Assembly (NCBI GenBank): GCA_043745805.1
Contig: JAYTSD010000043.1
Coordinates: forward strand, 105,089-169,088
Direction of reading: 5' to 3'
DNA: 64,000 nucleotides
Origin: Fibrobacteria bacterium
Lineage (GTDB): Bacteria; Fibrobacterota; Fibrobacteria; UBA11236
Of this stretch, positions 8,065 to 41,682 are shown piece by piece. The notes beneath the pieces are model-generated. The model did not search any database. It saw only the letters and a program-made list of their open reading frames with translations, and was not told the DNA's origin. A program made the translations under genes and the position numbers. Numbering within the stretch: the first letter of the stretch is position 1; each line of letters begins with the position of its first letter.

Positions 8065-10461
8065 ATGCCGATTCAACCTTCATACCCTGGTGTTTATGTT
8101 CAGGAAGTTTCCAGTGGAGTAAGGACAATAACAGGTGTCTCCACTTCGATTGCCGCTTTTTTTGGACGAACATTAAAAGGTCCCATTAATAAAGCCGTGC
8201 GATGCCTGAGCTATACTGATTTTTTGCGATACTTCGGCGGCGGCCATGCTCTGAGTGATACTGGGATTAGTGTTAAACAGTTCTTCGATAATGGGGGAAC
8301 GGATTGTTATGTAGTTCGGTTGGCTAAAAATCCAGCAGTGGCCAGTGTAACTTTAAAAAATGAAACAGCAGTTACGAAGAATGTCCTTATTGTTACTGCC
8401 AAGGCAGAGGGAACTTGGGGACAGCAAATAAAATTATTCACGGATTACAATACCACTAATCCAGATGATAGCTTCAACTTAACTGTTGTTCATGAAATTG
8501 ATGGGGCTGTTTTAGCTCAAGAAGTTCACAGTTTTCTTTCCATGAATCCAAATTCATCACGCTTTGCACCCATTTTTGTTTCGCAATCTTCAAAATTTGT
8601 CAATCTGGCCATTCATTCTGATTTAGGTGATCCTAATATTTCAGGGTCTATTATGAATTTAACCGCCAATACCCCCGCAGGTTATAGTCAAAGCCGCAGA
8701 GTGTTTACGGGAGTATCGGATAATGCGCTTAGGGATGCGGTCAAAACGGAGATTGAATCTAAAATTACTGCGGGTAAATCTAAGTTTGAAATCAATGTAA
8801 ATGGGATTAATGCTACCGTCGATCTCAAGGGAATCGAATTAAGGCCTGACTGGACTACTCCTGTTCCTAATGATGTAACGGGTTTGTTACCTTCGCTTGC
8901 TGCGCATATCAACCCGCAACTTCAGGCTGTGAATGCAAGTTTAGTTGTTGCGTTTAGCTGGGATACTTTGGCAACAAGAACTTTGGTATTAAGGGTAACA
9001 TCCGCTGTTGCGCCATTTTCCAATGTGTCCATTCGACGAAGTAACTCCAATGATATTAGTGCTGCTTTGATGTTGGGTGTAGAGCAAGGTGGTATTGAGG
9101 TTGCACGTTACAGTAATCTTCGTCCAATCCCCAATGGATCCTATTTTTGGGGAGGCGGTACGTATGGAAATTTTACCACTGAACTCGATAAATTCGCCGT
9201 GCTGGCTCAAAATGGAATAACGAGTATCACCCTTGGGACAAAGGTTATCCCTTTAAACCTTGTCACGGCCGGTACTTTGATTTACGAACAAGCCGCAGGC
9301 GCACTGGATGGGGTGCGAGAAAAACTACGACTCATTGTACAGGCCGTAAATGCGGATGTGAATTCCCCCTGTACCGCTGAGTTATGGGGATATCATCTCG
9401 TATTTAAGCGCAAGATGGGTAATATAAATGATACTGCTTCCATTACCACAAGTCCTGGGGCTAACTTTGGAAATGGATTTGTATCCAATGTAAAACAGTA
9501 TAGCCTAGGAGCTCTGGGAACGGGTGTTTATCAATCTGCGGGTACAGCGGGTAGTGATGGTATTGCTCCAGATAAAAATACTTATGTGGGTAGCCCTGTT
9601 GATCATACCGGTTTTTATGCCTTGGATAAAGTGGACCTTTTTAACCTAATGATAATTCCTGGAGATCGTGAAGTGCTCGCCTCACTCTATGCAGAATTGA
9701 TTGCGGAGGCCAGTAATTTTTGCCAGCAAAAACGCGCGTTTTTTCTGGCGGATGCTCCTGCAGATTGGACTCAAGGGGAAATCATGGCGGCGGATGCTAG
9801 CGCAGTTAACAATATTCGCATAGGTGTGGCAAAAACAAATTCGGCAATATTTTATCCGCGAGTACAATTTAGTGATGGTGGATTGCGTAAGTATATCGGC
9901 CCTTCCGGCATGATTGCAGGATTAATGGCCAGAACCGATTCTCAACGCGGAGTGTGGAAAGCACCTGCGGGCATTGATGCGGATTTGCGTGGTGTACTCG
10001 ATGTAGAATTAAACTTAACAGATAATGAAAATGGTGTGTTAAATAAATTAGGCGTGAACTGCCTGCGTAAATTTCCGAATGGAATTGTGAACTGGGGCGC
10101 ACGTACCTTGGATGGTTCAGATGATTTTGGTTCGGAATGGAAATATATTCCTATTCGTCGTCTCGCACTTTTCTTGGAAGAGTCACTTTTTCGCGGAACT
10201 AAATGGGTAGTATTTGAACCCAATGATGAACCCCTTTGGGCTAAGATTAGAATGAACTTAAATGCATTTATGAATAGTCTATTTAGACAGGGTGCATTTC
10301 AGGGAAGTACGCCTGATAAGGCCTTCTTCGTAAAATGCGATGGAGAAACGACCACAGCTAATGATCGCAACTTAGGTATTGTAAATATTCAGGTTGGCTT
10401 TGCACCAGTTAAGCCGGCGGAGTTCGTCATTATTAGCATACAACAAATCCCAGATGTCTAA
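8065..10461 (+). CDS. Contractile tail sheath protein (Afp2/3/4-like), enlarged
   Basis: YPGVYVQE N-terminus; QFFDNGG; RGVWKAPAG, LNKLGVNCLR, WGARTL, WKYIPIRR, VFEPND, APVKPAEF; AGGAG RBS. Confidence 0.96.
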   Translation: MPIQPSYPGVYVQEVSSGVRTITGVSTSIAAFFGRTLKGPINKAVRCLSYTDFLRYFGGGHALSDTGISVKQFFDNGGTDCYVVRLAKNPAVASVTLKNETAVTKNVLIVTAKAEGTWGQQIKLFTDYNTTNPDDSFNLTVVHEIDGAVLAQEVHSFLSMNPNSSRFAPIFVSQSSKFVNLAIHSDLGDPNISGSIMNLTANTPAGYSQSRRVFTGVSDNALRDAVKTEIESKITAGKSKFEINVNGINATVDLKGIELRPDWTTPVPNDVTGLLPSLAAHINPQLQAVNASLVVAFSWDTLATRTLVLRVTSAVAPFSNVSIRRSNSNDISAALMLGVEQGGIEVARYSNLRPIPNGSYFWGGGTYGNFTTELDKFAVLAQNGITSITLGTKVIPLNLVTAGTLIYEQAAGALDGVREKLRLIVQAVNADVNSPCTAELWGYHLVFKRKMGNINDTASITTSPGANFGNGFVSNVKQYSLGALGTGVYQSAGTAGSDGIAPDKNTYVGSPVDHTGFYALDKVDLFNLMIIPGDREVLASLYAELIAEASNFCQQKRAFFLADAPADWTQGEIMAADASAVNNIRIGVAKTNSAIFYPRVQFSDGGLRKYIGPSGMIAGLMARTDSQRGVWKAPAGIDADLRGVLDVELNLTDNENGVLNKLGVNCLRKFPNGIVNWGARTLDGSDDFGSEWKYIPIRRLALFLEESLFRGTKWVVFEPNDEPLWAKIRMNLNAFMNSLFRQGAFQGSTPDKAFFVKCDGETTTANDRNLGIVNIQVGFAPVKPAEFVIISIQQIPDV

Positions 10462-10490
10462 GCACTATTAAAGATCATTAGGAGATAAAA

Positions 10491-11012
10491 ATGGCCAAAG
10501 GTTTTGAAAAAAATGCAAAGCGTATTGATCCTTATAAAAATTTTAAGTTCCGTATTCTATGGGACAATAAAACTGTATTAGGAGTTAGCAAGGTCAGCGC
10601 TTTAAAACGTACTACCGAAGTGGTTTCGCATCGCGATGGGGGTGACAATAGCACTGATCATAAATCACCTGGTCGCACTAAATATGATGGCATCACCTTG
10701 GAACGTGGATTAACCCATGATCCAGAGTTTGAAAAATGGGCAAATAAAGTTCATCCCTACGCGGGCGACTCGGCCATGGATTTAGCCGATTATAAAAAAA
10801 ACTTAACCTTAGAAATGATGAATGAAAAAGGGCAGGTGGTTTATCGCTACTTTCTTTATCATTGCTGGGTTAGCGAATACACGGCCATGCCCGAGCTCAA
10901 TGCCAATGCCAATGCTATATCTATCGAATCTTTAAAAATAGAACTTGAAGGTTGGGATAGAGATTTGGATACCAAAGAACCGAATGAAAGTGATGACGTA
11001 CCGAAATCATGA
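10491..11012 (+). CDS. Tail tube protein (T4 gp19/Afp1-like)
   Basis: RIDPYKNFKF, PGRTKYDGITLERG, ELNANANAISIESL; follows sheath. Confidence 0.95.
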   Translation: MAKGFEKNAKRIDPYKNFKFRILWDNKTVLGVSKVSALKRTTEVVSHRDGGDNSTDHKSPGRTKYDGITLERGLTHDPEFEKWANKVHPYAGDSAMDLADYKKNLTLEMMNEKGQVVYRYFLYHCWVSEYTAMPELNANANAISIESLKIELEGWDRDLDTKEPNESDDVPKS

Positions 11013-11028
11013 TAGGGTGGAATAGAAC

Positions 11029-11859
11029 ATGAATGTTGCTCCGGGATCAAATGCTATTGGTCAGTTATCGGAGCAGACCACGTCCTTTGCCGGATTCTAT
11101 CCAGCGAGCGAAATACGCATGCGTAATTTTGGAATACTGCAAAGCGATCTCGGTATTAATTTTACTACAAAAAATACTTCGGCACTAATTACCCATTTAC
11201 TCGAACAATGTTCATTTGATCCTATAGGTATTGGGTCAACCGGTTTTTTCAAAAATCTTTCTATTGGCAGACGAGTAGAATGCTTGCTTGTTTTGGCAAA
11301 GGGAGGAGACCACTCAGATTTCAATTTCCCATTTGCTTGCTCCGGTTGCAAACAGATTATTGCGTTGGATATTACCATGGAAGAAATCACAACGCTGCAA
11401 AGAGAAGCGGATCACATTGAAACCGTGCAGATTCAAGTAATGGGTAACAATTTCGGTTTGCGAAAACCTTGCGGTCATGATCAAGAAAAATGGGCTGAAA
11501 TGGTTTTTCTCGATCAAAATGAAGCCCAGATAAAGATGATTAATTCGCTTACACTTACGGAGAATTTTCCTGCAAAAATCAATGCCGAGGCTTTGCAGCT
11601 TATTGATGAAGCGATGAACGTAGCGGATCCCTTGATCAACTTTAATTGCCAAGTAACTTGCGAGGAATGTACTACAAAAAATGAAATTGTAATTGACCTT
11701 TGCGATGCGGCGATAAATATGCTGAAGCGGCTTCAGCAGCAATTGATAGTGATGGCACATAAATTGGCTTCCCATTATCATTGGAGTGAAAGTGAAATTT
11801 TTGCTATTCCGCATTGGCGTCGGAAAGTTTATCTCGACCTTATAGCTGTTGGACGATAA
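11029..11859 (+). CDS. eCIS conserved protein (T4 gp26-like/tail assembly) with two CxxC motifs
   Basis: CSGC, CEEC, ADPL and the C-terminal HKLASHYHWSESEIFAIPHWRRKVY motif seen after CIS tube genes. Confidence 0.7.
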   Translation: MNVAPGSNAIGQLSEQTTSFAGFYPASEIRMRNFGILQSDLGINFTTKNTSALITHLLEQCSFDPIGIGSTGFFKNLSIGRRVECLLVLAKGGDHSDFNFPFACSGCKQIIALDITMEEITTLQREADHIETVQIQVMGNNFGLRKPCGHDQEKWAEMVFLDQNEAQIKMINSLTLTENFPAKINAEALQLIDEAMNVADPLINFNCQVTCEECTTKNEIVIDLCDAAINMLKRLQQQLIVMAHKLASHYHWSESEIFAIPHWRRKVYLDLIAVGR

Positions 11860-11862
11860 ATT

Positions 11863-12846
11863 ATGCCAAACTATTTTTCACGTCTTGCTGAGCAGAGTGG
11901 TTTTCAATTTAAGGGAAGCCAAGGAGTAAGGCCCGAAGTATTAGAAAAAAAAGCGGGTAGTGGACTTTCTCCGCTTGAACAAGAAGCGACGATTTTAAGT
12001 CCATCGCAACCATTAGAAAAATCTTCCCTAACCTTAATAGATTCGAATAAGCATGAAATGCAACCCTCCATTTCTAAAAATGAAGAAATTAAAAATGAGC
12101 CTTCAGAGAAAGCGCCTATTAATCCGAAGGAAATTTTTGCTCAAAAACAGGTAACTCGTGAAGTTAATCCAATTGTCCAAAACATAGATTCTGTGACTGC
12201 GCCAATGGAAAATAAAACCCTTGCTGCATCGCTTTTCAATAAAGCGATATTGCCTGTGAATAAAATGAACGAAAATAGTTTATCACAGGAGTCGAAAGAG
12301 TTTAAATCACCGAGTGCTGTTAAATTAGCTGATCCTGTTGAAGCGTCAGTACCGATACAAGATTCACCTCAGTTTGAGTCAGCAGAAAAACAAGAAAGCA
12401 TTGTGTCTCTCCTTTCACCTTTGGAGAATTCTGAAAAGCCAAATTATTTTTCCAGAACTTCGGAGATTTTGAATCAAGGTCAAATCGAAAAACAGGATAT
12501 TCATTCTCTTATTCTGCAAGATGTTCAGGAATGGGTTGCGGCTTCGCCCACGGATACAAAAACGGTAAAAAGTAATATTGAAGTATTCAATACGGCTTTA
12601 AATTCAGAACCTGTATTCTCAAATGAGATAACTGATCCGTTAACACAAAATTTGTTTCGATCTAGAAATGCAGAAGTAGAAAGTTCGTTGGAACATAACT
12701 TTAATCTTTCCATTGGATCCATTAGTATTATTATTGATGAACCCACAAAACCACAGCATTCAGAATTTAAAAGCCAGCCACAACCTCAACCTACAATACC
12801 GAAAAACGAAAATCGTTTTTCGCGACTTAGTCGAAGTTATCTCTAA
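11863..12846 (+). CDS. Low-complexity eCIS hypothetical protein
   Basis: Starts 3 bp after the previous stop; S/E/K/P-rich; MPNYFSRLA start and LSIGSISIII-P C-terminal motif. Confidence 0.65.
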   Translation: MPNYFSRLAEQSGFQFKGSQGVRPEVLEKKAGSGLSPLEQEATILSPSQPLEKSSLTLIDSNKHEMQPSISKNEEIKNEPSEKAPINPKEIFAQKQVTREVNPIVQNIDSVTAPMENKTLAASLFNKAILPVNKMNENSLSQESKEFKSPSAVKLADPVEASVPIQDSPQFESAEKQESIVSLLSPLENSEKPNYFSRTSEILNQGQIEKQDIHSLILQDVQEWVAASPTDTKTVKSNIEVFNTALNSEPVFSNEITDPLTQNLFRSRNAEVESSLEHNFNLSIGSISIIIDEPTKPQHSEFKSQPQPQPTIPKNENRFSRLSRSYL

Positions 12847-12860
12847 ATTATTCAGGATTT

Positions 12861-14084
12861 ATGGCACTTGCTGATACATCAAAAGCTATTGGAGCCGTTA
12901 CTAAAGGGCTTAAAGAACGTCTTGAATTTAGAACGGGTTATCATGTAAGTGCAGGTCGCATTGAAAAGCCCAATTTGACTATAGACGAGGCCTACTTAAA
13001 TCTTTTTTTATATGAAATCGCTTTTGATCCGCAATTAAAAAATACACCATTAAATGAAGGTGAAAAGCCACCTATATGGTTGGTGTTGAAATTTTTGCTA
13101 ACCGCCTTTGCCTCGAAAACAGAAAGCGATACTCAAGCTGCCCATGAAATATTAGGTTTGGCGATTCGAGCTATTTATCAAGATGATTTGCTAAAACTAA
13201 ATGGATTGGGAGATGTCAAACCTTTAGAAAGTAATCCGAGTGAATTGCATGTTACCTTTGAGGAATCACCAGCTGATCTGGTCGCGAAGTTAACCCAGGG
13301 TTCTGATGAAACGCCAAGACTTTCCATTGCCTTTCAAGTGCGTCCGGTGATGATTGCCTCAGCAGAACCCGGCCATTATTCTTTGCTTGTGGGTGTGGAT
13401 TATACTAAACCGCCAATTACCCTTTCACCAGCGCCCGTTGGGCTGGATGTAATTCCTTCCATGGGATCCTTTATAACCGAGATAGTACCCTCAGGATTTG
13501 AAGTGAATGAAGAGATTACTCTGCGTGGTACGGATCTGCATTTGGCGAATCTCTCGGTGATGCTTGGATCAGTTGAACTCCCTATAACCATGCAGCAACC
13601 TGATGAATTAAAGTTTAAAATCGATAGTGCGATTATTGCAGCGAGTGGACTTTCCGCTGGAAGTTATTCGGTTATGATTGTGCAAACTCTTCCGGGTACG
13701 GGTAAAAAACGCAAGAGCAATGCGCTAATAGGAAATTTAGTACCCACACTTTTGAATGCTCCGATAGCGGCATTTAGCCTTATGGTTATTCCCGCAATTC
13801 CTCCCAGTAGTTTCGACACCGCTTATGCCACTATTAATCTGAATGGTATATTGCTAGGAAATAAAAATGATGATGTGATACTTGCTCTTTATCGTGATGG
13901 TAAAGTGTATCAATCTTTTGACGTATTTTCTGTGTTACCCGTCCCACAACCTCCCTTACAACCTGCACAGCAATTGAAGATGATTGCTAAGGACGCGGTG
14001 CCCGTGGGTGACTATCAGGCCATTTTACTAGTTAATGGGCAACAAGCTCCTCAAAGTCCAATTATTTCCCTGCATAATCCATGA
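12861..14084 (+). CDS. DUF4255/Pvc16(Afp16)-like cap/terminator protein with Ig-like (IPT) extension
   Basis: AIGAVT..L, LNLFLYEI, FLLTAF, HEILGLA, RLSIAFQVRPVMI; then ITEIVPS...ITLRGTDL. Confidence 0.85.
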   Translation: MALADTSKAIGAVTKGLKERLEFRTGYHVSAGRIEKPNLTIDEAYLNLFLYEIAFDPQLKNTPLNEGEKPPIWLVLKFLLTAFASKTESDTQAAHEILGLAIRAIYQDDLLKLNGLGDVKPLESNPSELHVTFEESPADLVAKLTQGSDETPRLSIAFQVRPVMIASAEPGHYSLLVGVDYTKPPITLSPAPVGLDVIPSMGSFITEIVPSGFEVNEEITLRGTDLHLANLSVMLGSVELPITMQQPDELKFKIDSAIIAASGLSAGSYSVMIVQTLPGTGKKRKSNALIGNLVPTLLNAPIAAFSLMVIPAIPPSSFDTAYATINLNGILLGNKNDDVILALYRDGKVYQSFDVFSVLPVPQPPLQPAQQLKMIAKDAVPVGDYQAILLVNGQQAPQSPIISLHNP

Positions 14085-16240: not shown

Positions 16241-16244
16241 TAAT

Positions 16245-16505
16245 ATGGCTAATCGAAATATTCACATTGAAAATATACAAGTTAGCATGCCACCTCATTT
16301 GGTAGTGCAGGCGCATGAAATAGGGAATGGACTTGGTCAGGCTATTCTGCATGCCATTGCTGAATCTACGCTTGGAAAACATGGCCATAAAAAAATAGCC
16401 GCCTTAGAGGTCGGAAAAGTGAGTGTGAAAAACTATGCCGAACCGCGAGGAATACAACAACAAATTGCGAGTCATGTGGCGAATACGATTCGGGAAAAAT
16501 TCTAA
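16245..16505 (+). CDS. Small eCIS hypothetical protein
   Basis: Fills the gap in the operon; IHIENIQV motif typical of small CIS accessory ORFs. Confidence 0.65.
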   Translation: MANRNIHIENIQVSMPPHLVVQAHEIGNGLGQAILHAIAESTLGKHGHKKIAALEVGKVSVKNYAEPRGIQQQIASHVANTIREKF

Positions 16506-16522: not shown

Positions 16523-17185
16523 ATGGCTGGTTTTTTAATGAGAGGCGCATTGATCGAATACGGTTCCGATTTTATGGGACCCATTCCTAATGTAGTGATC
16601 TTTCAATTCAATCCTGAGACCTTGTCACGTACCGTACAAATTCCTCCGCGTCCGGCTTCTGCGACGGCACGCGAAACGACACAAGCGGGTCAACCTTCTA
16701 TAGAAAAAATCACCTTGAAGGCTAGCTTTAGTGCGGCAGATGAGCTGGGCGATAATAAAGCCTTAGCGCGATTGTTTGGTGTCGGGACTCGTTTAGCCGC
16801 ATTGGAGAAAATGGTTTATCCGTCCAATGAATTGACTGCTGCAATCGGTGCTGCGCTAGGCTTAGGAGGCAGCTCAACCGGTGGTGATCTTAGGCAGCCT
16901 ATTCCGCGTCAAAAAATGCCAAGGATATTATTTATTTGGGGGCCATTAAAAGTATTACCGGTGGTACTCGAATCCATGAGCATTACCGAACAACAATATG
17001 ATTTTTTATTGAATCCCACGCAAGCTGAGGTTTCCATTACCATGGCCGTTAACTCTAATGATCAATGTTCGGATGATAATATAGGTAAAGGCGCTTTATC
17101 TTATTCTAATATGGCAAAGGATGCCCAAGCCATGGCAAACCTTTCTAATACGGCTGCACAAATTGTGGACTTAATTCCATTTTGA
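16523..17185 (+). CDS. CIS tube-initiator protein (Afp7-like)
   Basis: VVIFQFNPETLSR, ILFIWG, LPVVLESMSITEQQYD..LNP. Confidence 0.85.
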   Translation: MAGFLMRGALIEYGSDFMGPIPNVVIFQFNPETLSRTVQIPPRPASATARETTQAGQPSIEKITLKASFSAADELGDNKALARLFGVGTRLAALEKMVYPSNELTAAIGAALGLGGSSTGGDLRQPIPRQKMPRILFIWGPLKVLPVVLESMSITEQQYDFLLNPTQAEVSITMAVNSNDQCSDDNIGKGALSYSNMAKDAQAMANLSNTAAQIVDLIPF

Positions 17186-32654: not shown

Positions 32655-32690
32655 GTTTAATTTTTTGAAATTTATAATTGAGGTTTGAAA

Positions 32691-33149
32691 ATGACTATAA
32701 AACAAAAAACTCGCCTTGAGCAAACGGCTGCTGAATTTGATAATATCGTATTAGCGCTCGATCAAGTTCGTACTCTGCAAATCGCAGATGGACATAGTCT
32801 TGAAAATGCGAAGGGCAATGTTTATGAAAGAGAACATGAACGTTTGTTGCGAAAATTTGGAAAAGAACATCCTCGTACCGTAGAAATGGGATTGCGAATC
32901 AAAGGCAATGAAAAATATAAAACGGCGATTATTGTAGAATACAAAAAAGCCTCTTCGTCGATTGAAAAAAAATCTCAGCGTCCAGCACCCCCTAATAATA
33001 CAGGCTCAAATAAATTTACCAAGGTTGCAGAAGCAAAGGTAACCGATGCCAAGGAAACAACGCCTTCTCCTGAATCTGGAAGAGAAGTTCCTAAAACATC
33101 GGTAACAAAAATAGTGAAGAAAACTGCCGCTAAGAAAAAGAAAAAATAA
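32691..33149 (+). CDS. eCIS hypothetical protein (ATG 32691 preferred over TTG 32685)
   Basis: GAGG RBS 7 nt upstream of ATG; REHERLLRKFGKEHPR helix; Lys-rich tail. Confidence 0.65.
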   Translation: MTIKQKTRLEQTAAEFDNIVLALDQVRTLQIADGHSLENAKGNVYEREHERLLRKFGKEHPRTVEMGLRIKGNEKYKTAIIVEYKKASSSIEKKSQRPAPPNNTGSNKFTKVAEAKVTDAKETTPSPESGREVPKTSVTKIVKKTAAKKKKK

Positions 33150-33194: not shown

Positions 33195-36100
33195 ATGAAG
33201 GCATTGGTTTCAGAAAAAGCTGAGGTAGAGAAGGCTGGAAAAGTCTCAACTAGCCATAGCTCTGATAGTCTACAGCCAATTTTTGGATCCGCCAACCAAT
33301 CCTCTCCTTCTATATTTCGCAAAGCGACTTGTGCTTGCGGCGGTGGTTGTTCTAGTTGTCAAGCTTCTACGAATGATTTAAAAATATCTCAACCTAATGA
33401 TCCCGCAGAAATTGAAGCGGATCAAATAGCGGATAGGGTAATGCGCATGCCGAAGGAAAATGTTTCTTCGGATAGTAACATGCAACGGTCATCCAAAGTC
33501 GATGGAAATAATCTCCAACGAAAATCATTACCCTCAAGTAGTGGAATTATTTCTCAAAGTTCTGGGCATGTGCAAAATGCCATGCAAAGTGGTGGTCGTC
33601 CTTTAGAGCTTGGCACTCGTAATTATTTTGAACCAAGATTAGGTTATGATTTAAGTTCCGTCCGTCTGCATACGGATGCAAAAGCGAATGAGTCGGCTCA
33701 TGCTCTCAATGCAAAGGCTTATACCGTTGGCAAAGATATTGTATTCGGGCGCGATGAATACAAAACAAATTCTGAGGGCGGGAATCGTTTATTGGCCCAT
33801 GAGCTTGCACATGTCACACAGAATAATTCTGTCATTCATCGGGATGAAAAACCCGATGCCGTAGTTGATCCTGTAGAAGTGAGGCTTGAAGGGCTCCCCG
33901 AAGACGGACTTAAATTAATGGCGAAGTCCACACGTGTGGATGCGAATATAATTGATAAGGAGATGGTAAAGAATGGAGATTTGGTTTTTCCCGAATTTGG
34001 GGTGCACGATAATCAAGGGAAAACCTGGGCCTGGATAAATGTGCCTAGTAGAAATGCAATAGATGTACCCATCAATAAACTTTATGCAAAAGATCGCAGG
34101 TTTAACTATCCAATTTTGCATGGATTTATTGAATTCAAATATTTGGGAAATATTACTATTCATATTACTATATATGCTAAACCACCGGTAAAGATAGATC
34201 CTCCGGCTCCGGTTTCTTTAGAACCCCCTAAACGAGATAAACCCGCTGCTCCTGAAACACAATCTGCCAAAGATTTGATCAATCATGAAACATCTTGGTA
34301 CCTAGAATTAAATGAGGAGGCGCTTGGAAAAAAGCTACTTGAATATGCAGATGGAGGAAATTTTTCTACACCCGATTCTGTACTTGAAGAGCTTGGTAGT
34401 AGTGATCGTGATGATGTCTCCTTTGAATTAATAAAGGCATCCAGCGAGGAACAGCTTTCGGGAATGGCAGAAACTGAACAGGGCAGAAAATTTTTAGATC
34501 GACTCTATGATGAATTAACCAGCGGATCTGCAGATGAAGCGGAAACGGTGCAGGCTGAGCGAATTCTCATGGCCAAGGCGCGTCGAATCGACCCGGAAAA
34601 ATTCATGAATGCGGATAAATATGCTATGGTTATTCCCTTTTCTGCTTCTGGATTTACCAAATTCAATTCAGCTTCACTTTCAGTTCATCGAATGGATAAT
34701 GGAAATATTTGGGTACGTAGCCATATGACAGGGGAACATTACCCGAATTCAAAAATTTCGCCTGAACATTATGCCATTATGTATTCGGGAATGGAAATGG
34801 ACCCTGATACAGTAGTTGGGCTTTATCTTTATGATGATGGAGGTAAAATCATTTATATGCCTGCACTCTACCTCCTTCAGCTTAGTAATAGTGAAACTAC
34901 TAAAATTGGTACTATGGCTGGTGAGGCATTTTTAACTGGCTTAACCCTTGGTGCTGGTGGTGAAGCTGTTGCCATTGCGGAAGGTGCAAATGCGTCGCGT
35001 GCAGCCATTTGGGGAGCTCGGGCATTTACGGTGCTTAAATGGACTGATAGAGCGGCTGCGGTTTTCGCTGCAGCAAGTACAATAATTAATGAGCATCGTG
35101 GTTGGATTATCGAAAAATTTGGCGAAGATGGACGTGAATTTCTAAAAGATTGGGCAAAAGTTGATCGCATTCTAATGATTTATGGGTTGGCAAGAGGTGC
35201 CGTTGCCTTAGGCCAAATGGGATGGGGTTTGCGGGCAAGCTACAAGAATTGGCGTTCGGCAGCTGATAAATTGGATGATTTGGCTGAAGATGAGAAAAAA
35301 ATAGTTAATGATTTAGCCTCAAATACGGAATCGACTATAGAGGAAATAGAAACTGCCCAAAACAATGCAGGCATGGGAACAAAAGCGGCTACCACCGATG
35401 CTGCAAAGCAAATGGATGAAGCTACTGATGATATTAAAGTTTTGAATAAAAATGATATTACCGTTTCTAATACTGGAAAAGCAACCGGTGAAGTTGAAGA
35501 GGCAGGAGCGGAGGTTGTTGAGCTTGACAAATACCGACAGCAAAAATCTTTAAAACAAAAAGCACGTCAGCCTGCTCAGCAAATGAAAAAAACCGGCACA
35601 GATGATACTGTGGCGGTAGCGCAAGATGCGCCGATTGCAGCTAATGACAATGTCGAAATAGTTTCTGATTCAACTACAACAACAACAGGTAATTCTACTC
35701 GTAACGCAAAAGTTACTCCTATTAATGGGCAACCGAAAGTTGACCTTTCTGAATTTACCAATGGTGCGAAGCTAGAAAAAGATAAATGGATTGGGAAAAA
35801 ATGGAAAAAAGGAGATCCCCTTCCTGAGGGTTATGTCAGCCTTGAAGATGGTGGAATACGAAGGGGTCCTGGATTTCGTGAAAAAAATTATGTACCCCTT
35901 GAAGTAAAAGAAGGAAAGCTTGTTGTGGGAACGGGTGGTGAACGCATAAGTAACCCCTCGGTAATGAATCGGAATTATAAGAAGGGATTGGCTCAAGATT
36001 TGGAAGTTAAAAATCCAAGTTGGTCAAAGGCAAGATTAGAAAAGGAAGTGGCAAAGGAAGTTGAAAAAAATGCCGTTCATCATTTAATACCTGATAATGT

Positions 36101-36467
36101 GGTTCAGGACCATCCTCTCGCTCAGGCGGCAAGAGATGTTGGATACGATCTGGACAATAGTGAAAATTTAATTGGGTTACCTAAATCCAAATCCCTCACC
36201 GATATTGAGGCAGGGGAAATGGGACATTGGACAAGCCATCCTCAATATGACAAGATTGTAAAGGACGAGCTCACAAAGGTTCAGAAATTATTGGAAAAAA
36301 AATTCGGAAGCCTAGACAAAGTTCCTAAGCAAAGATTAATGGATGCGATGAAAAATGTTGAAGAGAAACTTCAAAAACTTATTGAAGACGGTTTGGCTCC
36401 AATCAAAGATGGTCACCTCGCCGAAGAAGAACAGGAGGAATCCAAAAATCCATCTTCATTTGCCTAG
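33195..36467 (+). CDS. eCIS effector 1: DUF4157 + C-terminal AHH-type HNH nuclease
   Basis: FEPRLGYDLSSVRLH, AKAYTVGKDIVF, LLAHELAHV; C-terminal AVHHLIP...YDLDNSENLIGLP...GHWTSHPQY. Confidence 0.85.
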   Translation: MKALVSEKAEVEKAGKVSTSHSSDSLQPIFGSANQSSPSIFRKATCACGGGCSSCQASTNDLKISQPNDPAEIEADQIADRVMRMPKENVSSDSNMQRSSKVDGNNLQRKSLPSSSGIISQSSGHVQNAMQSGGRPLELGTRNYFEPRLGYDLSSVRLHTDAKANESAHALNAKAYTVGKDIVFGRDEYKTNSEGGNRLLAHELAHVTQNNSVIHRDEKPDAVVDPVEVRLEGLPEDGLKLMAKSTRVDANIIDKEMVKNGDLVFPEFGVHDNQGKTWAWINVPSRNAIDVPINKLYAKDRRFNYPILHGFIEFKYLGNITIHITIYAKPPVKIDPPAPVSLEPPKRDKPAAPETQSAKDLINHETSWYLELNEEALGKKLLEYADGGNFSTPDSVLEELGSSDRDDVSFELIKASSEEQLSGMAETEQGRKFLDRLYDELTSGSADEAETVQAERILMAKARRIDPEKFMNADKYAMVIPFSASGFTKFNSASLSVHRMDNGNIWVRSHMTGEHYPNSKISPEHYAIMYSGMEMDPDTVVGLYLYDDGGKIIYMPALYLLQLSNSETTKIGTMAGEAFLTGLTLGAGGEAVAIAEGANASRAAIWGARAFTVLKWTDRAAAVFAAASTIINEHRGWIIEKFGEDGREFLKDWAKVDRILMIYGLARGAVALGQMGWGLRASYKNWRSAADKLDDLAEDEKKIVNDLASNTESTIEEIETAQNNAGMGTKAATTDAAKQMDEATDDIKVLNKNDITVSNTGKATGEVEEAGAEVVELDKYRQQKSLKQKARQPAQQMKKTGTDDTVAVAQDAPIAANDNVEIVSDSTTTTTGNSTRNAKVTPINGQPKVDLSEFTNGAKLEKDKWIGKKWKKGDPLPEGYVSLEDGGIRRGPGFREKNYVPLEVKEGKLVVGTGGERISNPSVMNRNYKKGLAQDLEVKNPSWSKARLEKEVAKEVEKNAVHHLIPDNVVQDHPLAQAARDVGYDLDNSENLIGLPKSKSLTDIEAGEMGHWTSHPQYDKIVKDELTKVQKLLEKKFGSLDKVPKQRLMDAMKNVEEKLQKLIEDGLAPIKDGHLAEEEQEESKNPSSFA
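33318..33452 (+). repeat. Copy 1 of effector N-terminal repeat (CxCGGGCxxC-LKISQPND module)
   Basis: Similar DNA at 36711 and 38896. Confidence 0.85.
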
Positions 36468-36584
36468 TGCCAACAATAAAATAGTGGAATAACTTTAATT
36501 TTTTTTTAAAAAGTAATGATGGAAAATTTTAAACATCACAATGATATTAATTTCAATACCAAAATGATTTTGGCTTGAATTTTT

Positions 36585-38753
36585 ATGTTTAGTCAAACCA
36601 CAAAATTATCTGAACAAAAATCCGACTATAAAAGTAAGTCGCATGGAAGCAATTCAGATTATGGAAGAACTGAACAATTTAATAAAAACTCGTCTGAGCA
36701 CTTATTGTATCGCAAAGCAGCCTGTCCTTGTGGCGGCGGTTGTTCGACTTGTCAATCCTCCTCTAATGATTTAAAAATATCCCAACCTAATGACACAGCA
36801 GAAATTGAGGCTGATCAAATTGCGGATAAGGTAATGCGTATGCCTGCCGATATTCCCATGAAAGTAAATACTAATATTTCTGTAACGGATAAGTTACATG
36901 CGAAATGTGACACCTACGAGGAAGAGAAAAAAACCGAAACGATTTTTAGAAAAGAAGGATTTGATGCAGTAAGTAGTTCTGCTTCAATATATGAAAATTC
37001 TTCAGTAAAAAGCGTCGTTAATTCCAATGGCCGATCTCTTGATTCTGCAAGTCGATCATTTTTCGAGCCTCGATTTGGTCGAGATCTTGGCCATGTTCGA
37101 GTGCATAATGATTCCACAGCGGCCAATTCTGCTCGTGCTATAAATGCACGTGCCTATACAGTTGGGAGTAATATTGTTTTCGGTAAAGGTGAATATGGAC
37201 CTGAGCATGAAAGAGGCAGACATTTATTAGCGCATGAGCTTGCACATGTGATGCAACAGGAGGGCTCTTCATCGAAATTAGATCGCAGCGTTATTTATCG
37301 GCAACCTTTAAGCGACGAGCAACAAGACTTAAATAATATTGACATTGAGATTGAAATTTTGAGTGAGCAATTATTAGATCCAATGGCTGCGCCATTAATG
37401 ATGCGAATAAATTATTTACAACAACGAAAAGCCATTTTATTAAGTCGAACATCGGCAACAATACCACGAACACAGAAATCTCTCAATGAAGAAGCTGTTC
37501 GCCTAGGCACCAAGCAAGCTATTCGGCGAAATCTTTGGGATGATTTAGATAAAATTCCTTCTTGGATCATTGAGGATTGGTTGTCAACGGATTTAATTCA
37601 AAGTGTAACCAAAGAACTTAATCTTTATTGGGATTCGGATGAAAAGGCTTTTATTCGCAATCGGATTGTTGATGCAATTGAACACGATGTAATGAACAAC
37701 ATTGAGGCAAAGAGAATTTATAATGCAACGGTTTGGGACTTAACAGTAAATAGAAAAGTTGAAAAATCTTGGTTTAAAAAATCCATGGATGTTGTCTGTG
37801 ATTATACGAATCCCTGTCATGGTAACATGGAAGAATTTCATGCGGACATTGAAAGTGGAATGAGCGTAGAGGAAGCACGCAAACACGGACTCAATCGGAT
37901 ATTTGGATGGGGTTTGGAGCAATCTCTCTCTTTTGGTGGATCGAGTGAATCTGGAAGTAGTAATGGACCAAAATTGGAATTAGTACCAGGAAAATTTTCT
38001 AACCCTATTCCTGCAACATCAGAAATCACCGGTGGAAATCCAGGTATGATTCGTGAAAGTGTTCCTAAAATACCCATTCATCCGGAGCCTATATGGGAGC
38101 CCACTCCCATAACGAAGCCAAAAGCAGCTCCGGAAGCTTTACCTGAACATACTACTACATCGTCAGACAATACTGGGGTGGTTCGAGCATCCAAACCACC
38201 ACCAAAATTGAATCCTAATTCAACTAATAGTACTAATGAAAATCCACAACCCTTCCCCGTTCCACCCACAATCCGAATTAAACCTCCCGACGTTGATACT
38301 GATTTGGATAAAAAAAAGCGTCGGGGAAAATGCACTTATGAATCTATTGGCCAGCAATCAGGACGATTTCCATGTCATGCCGATTATGCGAAAAAATTAA
38401 GTGGCGTTCCGCGTGAAGTAAGAATTCAAAGTCCCGACGGAGAATCTGTGGATTTCGATGCAATGGATCATGGGAATACTTTGTATGAAGTTAAAACGGG
38501 GTATCGTTGGATAGCCTTCATGAGTGACGGACCGCGGAAGACTGAAATAATTACCAGGTTTTGGACACAAGCTATTTCTCAAATAATAGTCGCAGCAAGT
38601 TGTGGTCATCCGTTAATGTGGTATTTTAATGATCCCTATGCCGCTAGTTTTTTTGGGGCTGAGAATTCACCGTATCCGAATTACTTTCAGATTCATTTAC
38701 CCGTTCGGGTTTGGTATGTTCCCTTCAACTGCAAGGAGGATAGCGATGGCTGA
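36585..38753 (+). CDS. eCIS effector 2: DUF4157 + Tox-REase-5-like nuclease
   Basis: LLAHELAHV; C-terminal VDFDA...LYEVKTGY...QAISQ...LMWYF. Confidence 0.8.
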   Translation: MFSQTTKLSEQKSDYKSKSHGSNSDYGRTEQFNKNSSEHLLYRKAACPCGGGCSTCQSSSNDLKISQPNDTAEIEADQIADKVMRMPADIPMKVNTNISVTDKLHAKCDTYEEEKKTETIFRKEGFDAVSSSASIYENSSVKSVVNSNGRSLDSASRSFFEPRFGRDLGHVRVHNDSTAANSARAINARAYTVGSNIVFGKGEYGPEHERGRHLLAHELAHVMQQEGSSSKLDRSVIYRQPLSDEQQDLNNIDIEIEILSEQLLDPMAAPLMMRINYLQQRKAILLSRTSATIPRTQKSLNEEAVRLGTKQAIRRNLWDDLDKIPSWIIEDWLSTDLIQSVTKELNLYWDSDEKAFIRNRIVDAIEHDVMNNIEAKRIYNATVWDLTVNRKVEKSWFKKSMDVVCDYTNPCHGNMEEFHADIESGMSVEEARKHGLNRIFGWGLEQSLSFGGSSESGSSNGPKLELVPGKFSNPIPATSEITGGNPGMIRESVPKIPIHPEPIWEPTPITKPKAAPEALPEHTTTSSDNTGVVRASKPPPKLNPNSTNSTNENPQPFPVPPTIRIKPPDVDTDLDKKKRRGKCTYESIGQQSGRFPCHADYAKKLSGVPREVRIQSPDGESVDFDAMDHGNTLYEVKTGYRWIAFMSDGPRKTEIITRFWTQAISQIIVAASCGHPLMWYFNDPYAASFFGAENSPYPNYFQIHLPVRVWYVPFNCKEDSDG
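36711..36967 (+). repeat. Copy 2 of effector N-terminal repeat (~257 bp shared with copy 3)
   Basis: Colinear, high-identity match to 38896-39152 visible by eye. Confidence 0.9.
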
Positions 38754-41682
38754 GGCATTGGGTTTAAAAAAAATGACAATGGGAGAAACCCATTCAAAGT
38801 CATTAATGCAGAAGTCGAAAAATGAATTTTATAATGACGAAATAAAATCCTCATTTGATAGCTTACCATTTTGGGGTCCGGATACGAAAATCAATCGCAA
38901 AGCCTCTTGCCCTTGTGGCGGCGGTTGTTCGACTTGTCAATCCTCCTTCAACGATTTAAAAATATCTCAACCCAATGATGCCGCAGAAATTGAAGCGGAT
39001 CAAATAGCGGATAAGGTGATGCGCATGTCCGCCGATGTTCCGGTGAAAGTAAATACTAATATTTCAGTAACTGATAAGTTACATGCGAAATGTGACAGTT
39101 GCGAGGAAGAGAAAGAAACCGAAACTGTTTTTAGAAAGGAAAGTTTTGCTGCCGCAATGGAACCTCCTCCCGAGGAGATAAGCTCCACAGTAAAAAGAAC
39201 TCTAAATTACGGTGGAAAATCACTAGACGAAAATAGTAGAGCATTCTTTGAACCTCGTTTTGGGATAGATTTTAGTCATATCCAAATTCACAATGATTCC
39301 CACGCTGCCGATTCTGCGCGTTCGATCAATGCTCGTGCTTACACGTTTAGCAATAATATTGTTTTCGGAAAAGGTGAATACCAACCTGAAAATGAAGCTG
39401 GAAAGGCATTGCTCGCCCATGAATTAGCCCATGTTGCTCAACAAAAAAATGGAAGTATTTCACCAAAAATACATCGGCTAGTAGGTGATGAGGAATCCGA
39501 GGTTACCTCTGCAAGCACGGAATCTACCCATGAAGCTGATGTTGCAACGGAGGAAAGTTATACAGACCGGCTTGTTAGGGAAGCCATCGAAAATGTATCC
39601 GTTCACATGGCACGTACCATGCGAGCTACTAGTCAGGTACCCATTCCAGAAACCATCATGGCCGCCCTTATTGCGGCTGAGGTGAGTTTTTTGTATCGGA
39701 GTTATGAGCGATTAGTTGAACGGGGCGAAGGCCTACAAATACTTAGTCGAATTACGGAGTTATTGAGCCCACTCGTTTTTGCCGAATTCTGCGCGCGATT
39801 TATTTGGGGAGTGATTCAGGGTTTGGTCAGTCCCATTACCGGTTTAGTGCATTTGGCTGCAGGGGCTATTCGACTAACTTTGTCCGCACTTGATTGGCTA
39901 GATACTCTGCCCTCGCGATTTCCCGCCTTGGTTGAAGAAGCTCAGGCGCTTAATGTTGCCATGACAGTATTTGGTACCCAAGCTTCCACCATATTGGAGT
40001 CCCTTACAAATCGAAGCAATTTGTTAACCTTCGCCGGTGGAATTTTCGAAGCCGCAACTTCCGCATCGGATGCAATAGAACATACAATAGTACGAGGAGC
40101 TCAAGCACAGGGGCGTTCAGCGGCAGATTCTTTGGCTACCCATTTTCTCGAAACTCCGCTTCCAGAACTGGCAGAAACTTCGGGAGAAATTATTGGCACA
40201 GTCATAATTGAATTAGTAATTCTGATATTTACTGACGGAGTAGGAAATCTCATTACTAAACTTGGAGAGTTTGCTCGTTCGCTAAGACCATTATCTCGTG
40301 GGGTTGTAGCTTTTACTGAAGTTGCAATTCGCGCAGGCCGTATTATTTCACAAATCGAGCATTTGATTGGAGTGCTGCTTAGCAGAACGGTTTTACGTCC
40401 ATTAATGCCTTTATTTGAGGCTTTAGAACCGTTACTTATAAGGATGAGAAGTTTTACTCAAAGCTTGATTGGTGCGGGAGAAGAAAGTGCCATAGTACTC
40501 GCACGTAGAAGTGCAAGGGCTATTGAAGAAACTGCTGCCGCTACCACGCGTACCTCTGAAAGAGCAGGATCACATCATACCACTATGCGAACATCGCCAC
40601 CTCGGAATCCTGCAACATCGGCTCCGCGAGTTACGGAGCCAATTCCAGAAGCAGCTGTAGTTGAACCCATTTCCGAACCATTAATGATGGAGCCACGAGT
40701 TACGGAAACGCCTAGGGAACCTGTCGTTACGGACTCGGAACCAAGACCTTTGTCCTCTGAACCCGAAGCGACAAATCCTACGACGGAAACTATTGAACCC
40801 CGTGCACCTGAAGCTGGGCTTAATCCCCAAGAGTTAGCTGAAGTTGGACCGGTCAATGATGAAACCCTAATTAATTTTCAAGAGCATCCCGATCGATTAC
40901 AAGCATGGGCAGAAAATCCGGAAGCTGCTGAGGCATTTAGATTTTGTAATTCTCCTTGCTTTCCCGAAAACATGACACCAGATCAAATTCGCAGAGCCGA
41001 AGCAATCATGCGGGATTTTCCAGAATTCGCACGAGCCAATCGCAGATCCCTTCATGAAGCCTTTGAAGCTGCCGATGAAGATGGCATAGAAGTTTTGCTT
41101 GAGGGACTTGATACTCGATTAAGGAGTCCGATAGAGGATGTTGTTGATCCTATGATGGATCCGGCGGATCGAGAGCTTTTATCAGGAACAAGTGAAGCCG
41201 ACGCACCGACTGGATTAAGGGAATCTGAAGAAATGGCGGCAGATCGTGTTGAAGCCGGTTTGACTCCACGAGAGGCTTGGGAGCCACCAAGTGGTGTAAG
41301 ACCTAGACCATCCGAGACATCAACCATTTCAGAACGGACTGAATGGATGCGTGAACGATTACAAATGCATGTTGACGAGGCCATTGAACACTATCGAGTA
41401 GGTGGAGGTTTAACTTCAGCGCAAGAGGCGGCTTTGTTGAAAAATCCTCACATGTTACCTGCGTTTCGCGGTAGTCGTGTAGATCAGTTTGCCAAGGATA
41501 CCATCATGCAAGATATTGATCTTGCCGATATTGTTACGGCCCCTGATTTTTTTGCTGAACCTGATATCCTAAGTTCTATTTTACCAGAATGGTTTGATAT
41601 CACGACTCGAGCCGCTTGGGTGGCGCATATTCAAAGATATCAATCTCGTTATGGTTTGGGTGTTCTTTTGCCAACGAATTGA
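38746..41682 (+). CDS. eCIS effector 3: DUF4157 + hydrophobic helical region + unassigned nuclease-like C-terminal domain (start 38746 rather than 38629)
   Basis: AAGGAGG RBS before ATG 38746, overlapping the previous stop; LLAHELAHV; C-terminal RGSRVD...PDI...WFDITT...H..RY. Confidence 0.8.
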   Translation: MAEALGLKKMTMGETHSKSLMQKSKNEFYNDEIKSSFDSLPFWGPDTKINRKASCPCGGGCSTCQSSFNDLKISQPNDAAEIEADQIADKVMRMSADVPVKVNTNISVTDKLHAKCDSCEEEKETETVFRKESFAAAMEPPPEEISSTVKRTLNYGGKSLDENSRAFFEPRFGIDFSHIQIHNDSHAADSARSINARAYTFSNNIVFGKGEYQPENEAGKALLAHELAHVAQQKNGSISPKIHRLVGDEESEVTSASTESTHEADVATEESYTDRLVREAIENVSVHMARTMRATSQVPIPETIMAALIAAEVSFLYRSYERLVERGEGLQILSRITELLSPLVFAEFCARFIWGVIQGLVSPITGLVHLAAGAIRLTLSALDWLDTLPSRFPALVEEAQALNVAMTVFGTQASTILESLTNRSNLLTFAGGIFEAATSASDAIEHTIVRGAQAQGRSAADSLATHFLETPLPELAETSGEIIGTVIIELVILIFTDGVGNLITKLGEFARSLRPLSRGVVAFTEVAIRAGRIISQIEHLIGVLLSRTVLRPLMPLFEALEPLLIRMRSFTQSLIGAGEESAIVLARRSARAIEETAAATTRTSERAGSHHTTMRTSPPRNPATSAPRVTEPIPEAAVVEPISEPLMMEPRVTETPREPVVTDSEPRPLSSEPEATNPTTETIEPRAPEAGLNPQELAEVGPVNDETLINFQEHPDRLQAWAENPEAAEAFRFCNSPCFPENMTPDQIRRAEAIMRDFPEFARANRRSLHEAFEAADEDGIEVLLEGLDTRLRSPIEDVVDPMMDPADRELLSGTSEADAPTGLRESEEMAADRVEAGLTPREAWEPPSGVRPRPSETSTISERTEWMRERLQMHVDEAIEHYRVGGGLTSAQEAALLKNPHMLPAFRGSRVDQFAKDTIMQDIDLADIVTAPDFFAEPDILSSILPEWFDITTRAAWVAHIQRYQSRYGLGVLLPTN
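38896..39152 (+). repeat. Copy 3 of effector N-terminal repeat
   Basis: Matches 36711-36967 and partly 33318-33452. Confidence 0.9.

Follow-up and report, generated by a model that had tools for sequence, protein, structure and literature searches.

What does a run of 21 co-oriented genes in a 64,000-nucleotide stretch of contig JAYTSD010000043.1 (hereafter the window) encode: a complete contractile injection system (CIS), as an earlier note on this DNA had proposed, and if so, of what type, with which cargo and with which mode of action? Our analysis indicates that the locus is quite probably a chromosomal, operon-like CIS of lineage II, a headless particle derived from a phage tail, with three cargo toxins encoded at its 3' end. 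According to the list of open reading frames (ORFs), the locus (8065-41682) comprises 21 intact plus-strand ORFs (g1 to g21), none of them broken, which follow one another with gaps of 0-45 nt or small overlaps, the exception being 118 nt ahead of the second effector gene. Its GC content (0.38-0.45) lies inside the range of the flanks. The 21 proteins were scanned against Pfam with curated cut-offs, and NCBIfam and PHROG scans were added; matches below a cut-off are flagged as such. The features, with E values in brackets, are as follows.

8065..10461, plus strand: g1, sheath of 798 amino acids (aa), with a large insertion between its N-terminal part and the conserved C-terminal domains (Phage_sheath_1 9.6e-13, Phage_sheath_1C 4.9e-12)
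10491..11012, plus strand: g2, inner tube protein (Phage_T4_gp19 1e-40; NCBIfam TIGR02241 1.4e-40)
11029..11859, plus strand: g3, protein resembling the T4 baseplate hub and DUF6760, with two CxxC pairs and a probable role as assembly factor (DUF6760 0.0017, T4_baseplate 0.033)
11863..12846, plus strand: g4, low-complexity protein with conserved ends (no Pfam or PHROG match)
12861..14084, plus strand: g5, cap or tail terminator with a C-terminal extension of ~230 aa (Pvc16_N 1e-16, residues 43-172)
14081..16240, plus strand: g6, AAA+ ATPase with a single AAA domain (residues 496-621) after an N-terminal region of ~480 aa (Pfam AAA 4.8e-28)
16245..16505, plus strand: g7, small protein (no family match)
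16523..17185, plus strand: g8, tube-initiator-like protein (CIS_tube 0.0076, below cut-off)
17199..17501, plus strand: g9, conserved 100-aa protein (no family match)
17503..18660, plus strand: g10, probable gp27/gpD-like hub, directly ahead of the gp5-like gene (own match YQBQ 0.064)
18660..19304, plus strand: g11, gp5-like spike with an oligonucleotide/oligosaccharide-binding (OB) domain and beta-helix repeats (Phage_base_V 1.5e-14; weak VgrG-family NCBIfam matches)
19305..19640, plus strand: g12, PAAR-like spike tip (DUF4280 0.0062, below cut-off; the protein at the counterpart position in Halogeometricum borinquense is annotated as a PAAR domain protein)
19645..20025, plus strand: g13, gp25-like baseplate wedge protein or sheath initiator (GPW_gp25 5.1e-10)
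20034..22670, plus strand: g14, first Baseplate-J/Cis11 (Afp11) paralogue (Baseplate_J 1.7e-06; TIGR02243 6.8e-45, 153.8 bits against a cut-off of 155.8)
22667..26269, plus strand: g15, second Cis11-like paralogue (TIGR02243 7.5e-36; phrog_219 'baseplate wedge subunit' 3.3e-17)
23954-24901, plus strand: Ala-rich insertion of ~316 aa in g15 (25% Ala), with a central hydrophobic 19-mer at 24404-24460
26274..28922, plus strand: g16, P2-gpI-like/Cis12-like wedge protein (Tail_P2_I 0.0012, residues 42-141, below cut-off)
28935..32654, plus strand: g17, tail fibre whose baseplate anchor is DUF6519 (eBAP5) and whose shaft is probably a beta-helix (DUF6519 1.8e-09)
32685..33149, plus strand: g18, small Lys-rich protein between the fibre and the effectors (no family match)
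33195..36467, plus strand: g19, effector 1, with a shared N-terminal module, DUF4157 (33600-33830), a long linker and AHH (36048-36302) (eCIS_core 4.8e-29, AHH 5.4e-13)
36585..38753, plus strand: g20, effector 2, with the shared N-terminal module, DUF4157 (37038-37265) and a C-terminal domain resembling PD-(D/E)xK Tox-REase-5 (38340-38750) (eCIS_core 1.2e-30)
38746..41682, plus strand: g21, effector 3, with the shared N-terminal module, DUF4157 (39223-39453), a hydrophobic middle and a C-terminal toxin domain (41125-41679; conserved core ~41320-41679) (eCIS_core 9.3e-30)
33317-33451, 36710-36844 and 38895-39027, plus strand: best-conserved DNA of the shared module, encoding the part ahead of DUF4157 with a Cys-rich motif and an acidic helix

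Matches at or above the Pfam cut-off covered the sheath, the tube, the Pvc16_N cap, the AAA ATPase, the spike, gp25, Baseplate_J, DUF6519, three eCIS_core domains and AHH; Pvc16_N is the present Pfam name of the former DUF4255, and eCIS_core that of DUF4157 (PF13699). The core set named by PMC8213781 (sheath, tube, spike, gp25, Baseplate_J, DUF4255 cap and AAA ATPase) is fully present at or above these cut-offs. The pair of genes on which PMC6899500 screens for extracellular CISs (eCISs), an afp11-type Baseplate-J gene and a gp19-type tube gene, was also found (Baseplate_J 1.7e-06 and Phage_T4_gp19 1e-40, with TIGR02243 and TIGR02241). The six families proposed earlier for a check with hidden Markov models (Phage_sheath_1, Phage_T4_gp19, DUF4255, Baseplate_J, DUF4157 and DUF6519) were all matched at or above the Pfam cut-off. 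The earlier note's description of a complete CIS that ends in three tandem polymorphic DUF4157 effector genes was borne out, as were the 21 co-oriented genes (ORF list) and the common N-terminus and different C-termini of the three effectors (Pfam, BLASTP).

Sheath, tube, gp25, Baseplate_J and spike families also occur in myovirus tails, and 519 phage records matched the sheath at low identity, as one would expect if the locus were a contractile-tailed prophage remnant or an R-type tailocin rather than a cargo-delivering CIS. We find this reading barely credible. Not one of the 519 records reaches 80% coverage of the query, the top match showing 35% identity over 53%. Among the 27 flanking ORFs of the 64 kb, the Pfam and PHROG scans revealed no capsid, portal, terminase, integrase, holin or endolysin family, in agreement with the earlier description of the locus as headless. 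The tRNA and Rfam scans of the window returned nothing, so that no tRNA is at hand as an integration site. The Pvc16_N cap, the dedicated AAA ATPase and the three eCIS_core proteins are, by contrast, markers enriched in eCIS loci (PMC8213781), and the headless gene set recurs in loci of many phyla. Among the flanking ORFs, 18 match cellular Pfam families (imelysin, di-haem oxidoreductase, sugar ABC transporter, FolB, NUDIX, PEGA, glycosyltransferase, QueG, TonB and LexA among others); the other nine match no Pfam and no PHROG family. The plasmid collection held distant relatives only (g14 at 23-30% identity; best sheath 41%, on a Cupriavidus megaplasmid). The families of a classical type VI secretion system (T6SS, types i-iii), namely the TssB/TssC pair, TssJLM and ClpV, were absent from the Pfam and NCBIfam matches of the 21 proteins and from the Pfam scan of the flanks, and only the shared modules (VgrG-like, gp25) were seen.

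Which kind of CIS is it? According to the classification of dbeCIS (Chen et al. 2019, PMC6899500), subtypes IIa and IIc carry two afp11 copies, afp8 is split into gp27 and gp5 ORFs in IIa, IIb and IIc, afp10 is present in IIa, IIc and IId, and divergent afp12 and afp13 are kept in IIa and IIb. The locus resembles IIa/IIc in its one sheath gene, its two afp11 copies (g14 and g15 both match TIGR02243), its probably split afp8 and its PAAR-like afp10; divergent afp12- and afp13-like genes, a IIa trait, and extra subtype-specific genes without known domains are further points of likeness. For the split afp8, the gp5-like g11 is firm, and the gp27-likeness of g10 comes from its position and from its family of 20 members, four of which show weak Phage_GPD matches (best E 0.001) and six YQBQ-like ones; g10 would be the first half of a split VgrG. 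The tape measure gene afp14 is generally absent from lineage II as described in that paper, and g4 is a candidate for the role here. The type is reported there from bacteria and archaea; likewise, the relatives fetched here include a metagenome-assembled genome (MAG) of Methanosaeta. By gene content, taken apart from any placement in an Afp11 tree, the locus fits IIa best and IIc next.

How widespread is this gene order? A scan of one genome per species gave 229 pattern matches, 210 of them with a g15 relative, and the best 80 loci were kept for comparison. When 8000 candidates were scored against the C-terminal 400 residues of g15, 759 proved to be relatives at E<=0.001, the best of them at 70% identity. 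The hosts include Acidobacteriota, Nitrospira, a betaproteobacterium, Verrucomicrobia, relatives of Bacteroidota, Chloroflexota, Cyanobacteria, Actinomycetota, the Methanosaeta archaeon and two Fibrobacteria MAGs (loci L012 and L013). In the fetched loci the order g5, g6, (g7), g8-g17, (g18) and then DUF4157 genes is near-invariant, with g1-g4 preceding it where the flank is long enough. Since this order recurs across the 80 loci, it is the standard layout of a large clade. Consequently, the suggestion of an undescribed variant did not hold: the gene order is common, the traits match the published IIa/IIc, DUF6519 fibres (PMC12923769) and DUF4157-toxin proteins lacking immunity genes (PMC8213781) have already been published, and the two Fibrobacteria MAGs already carry the type. 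Behind the fibre gene, at least one DUF4157 ORF was present in 49 of 54 loci, at least two in 22 and at least three in five; these 54 are the loci in which a g17 relative is followed by at least 3 kb of DNA, ~3-4.6 kb being visible in each, and some of the ORFs counted may be fragments. From the sequence comparison, the CIS type has evidently moved between phyla. Some relatives that share this order are in culture, among them Pseudaquabacterium terrae S2 and Nodosilinea nodulosa PCC 7104, and so this CIS type can be studied.

Some loci depart from this pattern. In the Methanosaeta MAG (L056) and in L075 the DUF4157 genes are placed ahead of g8 instead of following the fibre gene, the archaeal locus otherwise keeping the g8-g17 order. 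In three long-contig MAGs (L009, L021 and L069) many CIS genes are split into ORF pieces, which could be assembly frameshifts or decaying loci.

The host assignment is supported by two observations. Among the 120 best relatives of the flanking QueG protein, all five organism-named ones belong to Fibrobacteria, Fibrobacteres or Fibrobacterota (52-54% identity). In a tree of seven concatenated CIS proteins (3189 columns; the window and the 46 loci holding all seven, 34 loci being excluded for coverage), the sister of the window, at support 1.0, is locus L012 of a Fibrobacteria MAG, followed by a betaproteobacterium and two Acidobacteriota. These relatives support, at the level of sequence, an uncultured Fibrobacterota-like bacterium as host, distant from the named members, in line with the host proposed earlier. 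The same sister locus encodes a full-length g20 relative (L012:19795-22855; 30% identity over 788 aa, including the C-terminal domain). The term 'Fibrobacter' occurs nowhere in the main texts of PMC8213781, PMC12210884, PMC12923769 and PMC6899500, although their supplementary tables may list such loci; from the CIS literature, a passage of PMC8651086 names only the Fibrobacteres-Chlorobi-Bacteroidetes (FCB) group. With this locus, a very widespread CIS branch without structural characterisation gains a host from what looks like a little-studied phylum, Fibrobacterota; the current picture of eCIS biology stays unchanged.

We next consider the parts of the particle and their nearest solved counterparts. 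The best PDB sequence matches of the sheath g1 are the Streptomyces CIS sheath (8bky/9gtp, 251 bits), that of Halogeometricum (9ezm, 244) and 8bl4/9gts (243); Pvc2 (156), Afp3 (138), the sheath of the Anabaena thylakoid-anchored CIS (tCIS; 136) and that of AlgoCIS (131) score lower. The data statements of PMC12237407 and PMC11566945 tie 9GTP, 9GTS and 9EZM to Streptomyces and Halogeometricum. The tube had been described as single, which stands for g2 as the one main tube protein. However, g8 is weakly tube-like, and 'single tube' should be read as one main tube protein plus one tube-initiator-like protein; g8 is also the most conserved protein of the locus (82-85% identity in the closest loci). 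Besides its sub-threshold Pfam matches, g3 matches phrog_150 'baseplate hub' (E 3.8e-4, residues 53-272), and in its family of 22 members from the loci, T4_baseplate is found in 16 (best 1e-09) and DUF6760 in 17. The alignment of nine g4 members shows conserved N-terminal, middle and C-terminal blocks with variable spacers between them. Because g4 is placed after the tube gene and g3, and has conserved ends and a variable low-complexity middle, we infer a putative tape-measure-like or tube-lumen protein.

The baseplate wedge is the part for which a structural model was informative. The g14 family profile matched S. coelicolor Cis11 (9gtp_1K, 1.8e-10) and the AlgoCIS Baseplate_J protein (7aeb_G, 2.9e-4), whereas a PDB sequence search with g14 as a single protein returned nothing. 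Relatives of g16 were found in 67 loci. A PDB search with the single g16 protein gave only ribose-1,5-bisphosphate isomerase (E 0.0055), at chance level, and this candidate was rejected. A complex model of g15 residues 1-330, g14 residues 165-470 and g16 residues 1-260 scored 0.76 (highest of three controls, 0.53), a mark attained by 116 of 157 solved complexes and by 2 of 215 mismatched pairs. At least 95% of the contacts are shared between runs, the partners have a predicted local distance difference test (pLDDT) score of at least 71, and the interface is a helical bundle contributed by three chains. The wedge is thus predicted to be a g14-g15-g16 heterotrimer, although the pass may reflect likeness to already solved gp6/gp7-type wedges, a likeness that falls short of proof. 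If the prediction is right, the pair of distinct Cis11 paralogues in this wedge would illustrate how one twice-used gene became two specialised genes.

What distinguishes g15 is its Ala-rich insertion. Long forms make up 20 of the 120 best g15 relatives, and in 10 of 14 relatives with an insertion of similar size a hydrophobic peak lies near its centre. The insertion may form a helical hairpin with a hydrophobic tip. As it is missing from the other 100, it is not a trait of the CIS type.

The fibre protein g17 carries, in addition to its DUF6519 anchor, sub-threshold matches to Beta_helix (0.0011), Pectinesterase (0.0019), NosD (3.3e-05) and phrog_7458 'tail spike' (7.6e-4). In PMC12923769, DUF6519 is the fibre anchor class eBAP5, with 658 genes that frequently have beta-helix ends, and the class is treated there as the target-binding fibre of eCISs.

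What would such a particle deliver? The three effectors resemble one another in their N-terminal 190-250 residues only (g20/g21, 72% over 187 aa; g19/g20, 44% over 250 aa; g19/g21, 44% over 214 aa), and BLASTP between them found none past this shared module; their C-termini are mutually unrelated. The module runs from a variable start through a Cys-rich motif and an acidic helix to DUF4157, whose HExxH is seen in all three translations. A tandem array of a constant module with swappable toxin ends is the usual polymorphic-toxin arrangement. At the DNA level, blastn of g19 against g20 and g21 gave 84-86% identity over 133-135 nt, and g20 against g21 gave 77% over 504 nt; the stretch of ~135 nt is far more alike than the rest of the module and could be a recombination substrate for swapping toxin ends. 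The ORF of g21 is open from 38629, and the true start is most likely the ATG at 38746, 117 nt downstream, which follows AAGGAGG. Given this strong ribosome-binding site and the overlap of the ATG with the g20 stop, g20 and g21 would be translationally coupled. The first gene past the array is a convergent ABC transporter ATPase.

The arrangement is known from other systems. In AlgoCIS of Algoriphagus machipongonensis (subtype Ib, extracellular; PMC8894135), two DUF4157 cargo proteins with similar N-termini and different C-termini are likewise encoded at the cluster end, and the DUF4157 cargo sits in the tube lumen. ATPase-mediated loading of this cargo requires its disordered N-terminus, DUF4157 itself being dispensable (bioRxiv 10.64898/2026.05.27.728243). 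AlgoCIS differs from the locus in lineage (sheath 131 bits), in its fibre Alg19, in having one Cis11 and in its cap adaptor. The eCIS-associated toxins described by Geller et al. 2021 (PMC8213781) and Danov et al. 2024 (PMC11297309) share with g19-g21 the N-terminal DUF4157 with HExxH, the long linker, the C-terminal toxin and the position at the 3' end; the C-terminal domain of g21 differs from them in matching no Pfam family. Most eCIS-associated toxins have no recognisable immunity gene, according to PMC8213781.

All three effectors had been called nuclease-type, and the claim fares differently for each. For g19 it is firm by sequence: the C-terminal piece alone matched AHH (4.7e-14), this match and that of the whole protein both lie above the cut-off of 22.3 bits, and the His-His dyad, which we take to be the catalytic dyad, is present in the translation, as expected of an AHH nuclease domain (HNH/EndoVII). 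AHH was also the sole Pfam match at E<=1 among the linkers and C-terminal pieces of the effectors. For g20 the case is good, though indirect. Its C-terminal domain has 20 relatives (59-73% identity), all fused to eCIS_core (PF13699), in which an Asp and a Glu-x-Lys are invariant. The AlphaFold2 model (mean pLDDT 90.1) has as its top Foldseek match the T6SS effector-immunity entry PA3907-PA3908 of Pseudomonas aeruginosa (9oz0_B; prob 0.97, E 0.025, TMq 0.57), with other PD-(D/E)xK nucleases lower in the list; PA3907 presumably carries a Tox-REase-5 domain. In the Atlas, the domain fell with Tox-REase-5 clusters at 0.95, with 196 shared features. The Pfam Tox-REase-5 model PF15648 did not match g20 residues 523-722 even at E<=1. 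We therefore describe this domain, with good model support, as a PD-(D/E)xK domain of Tox-REase-5-like fold that would work like a Tox-REase-5, a candidate rather than an established member of that family.

For g21, the nuclease assignment stands on weak fold and feature leads. Its C-terminal domain has 268 relatives at E<=0.001, always at the C-terminus, in proteins of 66-5736 aa. In 73 aligned members, eCIS_core was present in 18 and other scaffolds in a few, and none had a Pfam family on the domain itself. By these sequence comparisons it is a real and widespread polymorphic toxin domain without a Pfam family, and this unnamed domain occurs on many delivery scaffolds. The model is of the same quality as that of g20 (mean pLDDT 90.9), and its top Foldseek match is Cas4 (4r5q; prob 0.84, E 0.42), followed by restriction endonucleases; in the Atlas, Tox-REase-9 at 0.90 is a lead only. 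The domain may be a PD-(D/E)xK-type nuclease. In a profile-profile comparison of the g20 and g21 toxin alignments, only the DUF4157 parts of full-length rows aligned, which says nothing on the C-terminal domains. Upstream of the toxin, the linker of g21 contains two 19-mers of strong hydrophobicity (window 39700-40300; positions 378-396 and 514-532 in the 1017-aa ORF), and this middle part may be a membrane-interacting or translocation region. A PoNe DNase was considered for g20 and g21 and rejected, by eye on translations and consensus lines: the motif Kx3GExnGIDx2YxnYx3ExK (PMC6688995) misfits, a Tyr standing directly before the Glu-x-Lys of g20 and g21 having no Glu-x-Lys.

How might these parts work together? 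Our model suggests that a hub of g10, g11 and g12 would nucleate the baseplate, around which each wedge would be a g14/g15/g16 heterotrimer, the two paralogues filling the places of the two Cis11 copies in the Streptomyces particle. The sheath would start on g13 and the tube on g8, g5 would cap the particle, g3 would serve as an assembly factor, and g4 as a length or lumen protein. By analogy to the DUF4157 cargo of AlgoCIS, the AAA ATPase g6 would feed the effectors into the tube lumen via their shared N-terminal region. We lean, with modest confidence, towards particles that are released from the producer; the presence of a fibre gene favours a released, target-binding particle. With its beta-helix fibre g17, such a particle would attach to a surface glycan; it would then contract and inject the effectors, which would cut the nucleic acid of the target with an AHH domain, a PD-(D/E)xK Tox-REase-5-like domain and a third domain that is possibly of PD-(D/E)xK type.

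Two solved systems bear on whether the particle leaves the cell. The CIS of H. borinquense (plasmid pHBOR03, clade IIa, T6SS-like mode; PMC11566945, sheath 9EZM) has two cis11 genes and the same order of gp27-like, gp5-like, PAAR and gp25 genes, two baseplate assembly genes, a tail protein and DUF4157 genes; its DUF4157 proteins are reported to be secreted in a sheath-dependent manner. A DUF6760 gene follows its tube gene, a region that g3 of the window carries in fused form. It differs from the locus in several respects: its cluster is split by an interspacing region, with the cap and ATPase genes on the other strand, whereas the locus lies on one strand; its fetched stretch has no g17 match and no gene annotated as a fibre, unlike the window with its DUF6519 fibre; and its toxic DUF4157 proteins have downstream immunity partners, which the effectors here do not. 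The CIS of S. coelicolor (type IId, with a cytoplasmic role in cell death; PMC12237407, PMC10066040; 9GTP, 9GTS) provides the best-scoring solved sheath (251 bits) and the best solved Cis11 for the g14 family, and its wedge consists of three chains (two Cis11 and one Cis12), like the modelled g14/g15/g16. In contrast to the two paralogues of the window, S. coelicolor uses one cis11 gene twice; it is also described as having a single-ORF VgrG (PMC6899500) and no fibre genes, and as needing the membrane protein CisA for firing.

These likenesses lend themselves to a different reading of the same parts, in which the particle is not released: it would be attached to the membrane of the producer and act in a T6SS-like manner, as in H. 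borinquense, or act from within the producer, like the Streptomyces and Anabaena systems, with the g15 insertion as the membrane contact. We consider such a mode possible, if rather unlikely. It keeps this chance because the nearest solved relatives are not free particles, the two top sheaths coming from a cytoplasmic (Streptomyces) and a T6SS-like (Halogeometricum) system (PMC12237407, PMC11566945), because no lysis genes were seen in the window, and because the g15 insertion is centred on a hydrophobic 19-mer, placed alike in 10 of 14 relatives of similar size. Moreover, Cis11 is at the membrane contact in Halogeometricum and forms a cage in Anabaena, as PMC11566945 and PMC8894136 describe. 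However, a DUF6519 fibre is present here, whereas the Streptomyces cluster as described in PMC12237407, and the fetched Halogeometricum stretch, have none; the Halogeometricum parts show low sequence identity (37% over 282 aa for the sheath, 39% over 280 aa for the ATPase, 26-28% for Cis11); and 100 of the 120 best g15 relatives do without the insertion. A more specific version is a long shot: the sub-branch of this locus and its Fibrobacteria and Pseudaquabacterium neighbours would have gained the insertion, so that six legs under the baseplate insert into or sense a membrane, giving an anchored or membrane-triggered, T6SS-like or membrane-gated mode in a diderm despite the fibres; separately, the g21 domain with its 268 relatives would be a PD-(D/E)xK-like nuclease with an unusual active site.

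Alternatively, the locus could be intact but silent or decaying, a horizontally acquired island without a current role. The spread of the type over many phyla, implying horizontal transfer, would suit this reading, as would the Pfam scan of the flanks, which recognised no regulator, and the promoter-like sites upstream of the sheath gene, which are not clearly above the shuffled expectation (7 versus 3.6 +/- 1.9; terminator counts were near the shuffled expectation). We judge it highly improbable, since 21 of 21 ORFs are open across 33.6 kb with coupled starts, the GC content of 0.38-0.45 is like that of the flanks, and the nearest relative is a same-order locus of another Fibrobacteria MAG, which fits retention in the lineage.

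The reading that we prefer, a lineage-II CIS that delivers three toxins, has its own weak points. The particle, its loading and its action are deduced here from sequence and models, and g8, g10, g12, g16, g3 and g4 were assigned from sub-threshold matches or position. PDB searches returned no match for the g5 protein, the g10 protein, or the family profiles of g3, g8, g10 and g16, so g3, g8, g10 and g16 could not be tied by sequence to solved CIS components. Neither lysis or release genes nor a regulator was seen among the Pfam and PHROG matches of the window, and the best-scoring solved sheaths belong, as noted, to systems other than free particles. No immunity-like small ORF adjoins any effector in window 33195-41836, which leaves self-protection unexplained. 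For the g21 domain, none of the 198 Foldseek matches listed had E<=0.001, and the canonical (D/E)xK lysine is not among its invariant residues, which include two Asp and a His. The host call comes from one marker (~53% identity) and a neighbour locus.

Finally, several smaller proteins and neighbouring genes deserve mention. Relatives of g7 (at least 60% coverage) were found in 11 loci and those of g9 in 64, and 10 of the 80 loci have a weak g18 relative (27-38% identity) in the corresponding place. For g4, g7, g9 and g18, neither the proteins themselves nor their relatives led to a Pfam or PHROG family; among the g18 relatives, two have transthyretin/CarboxypepD_reg-like matches, in regions that g18 of the window does not have, and one relative bearing such an extra region is found in L012. 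Just upstream of the locus, the minus strand (3645-7489) encodes an imelysin (Peptidase_M75), a di-haem oxidoreductase and a 425-aa protein without a family match but with a beta-barrel-like C-terminal end; by sequence, these genes have the appearance of a cluster for iron-related uptake, with no relation to the CIS. Downstream (49530-52210, 60877-61569) lie two genes whose products have STAS domains, in one case joined to PEGA domains, and, at a distance of 19 kb from the locus, a gene for a LexA repressor.

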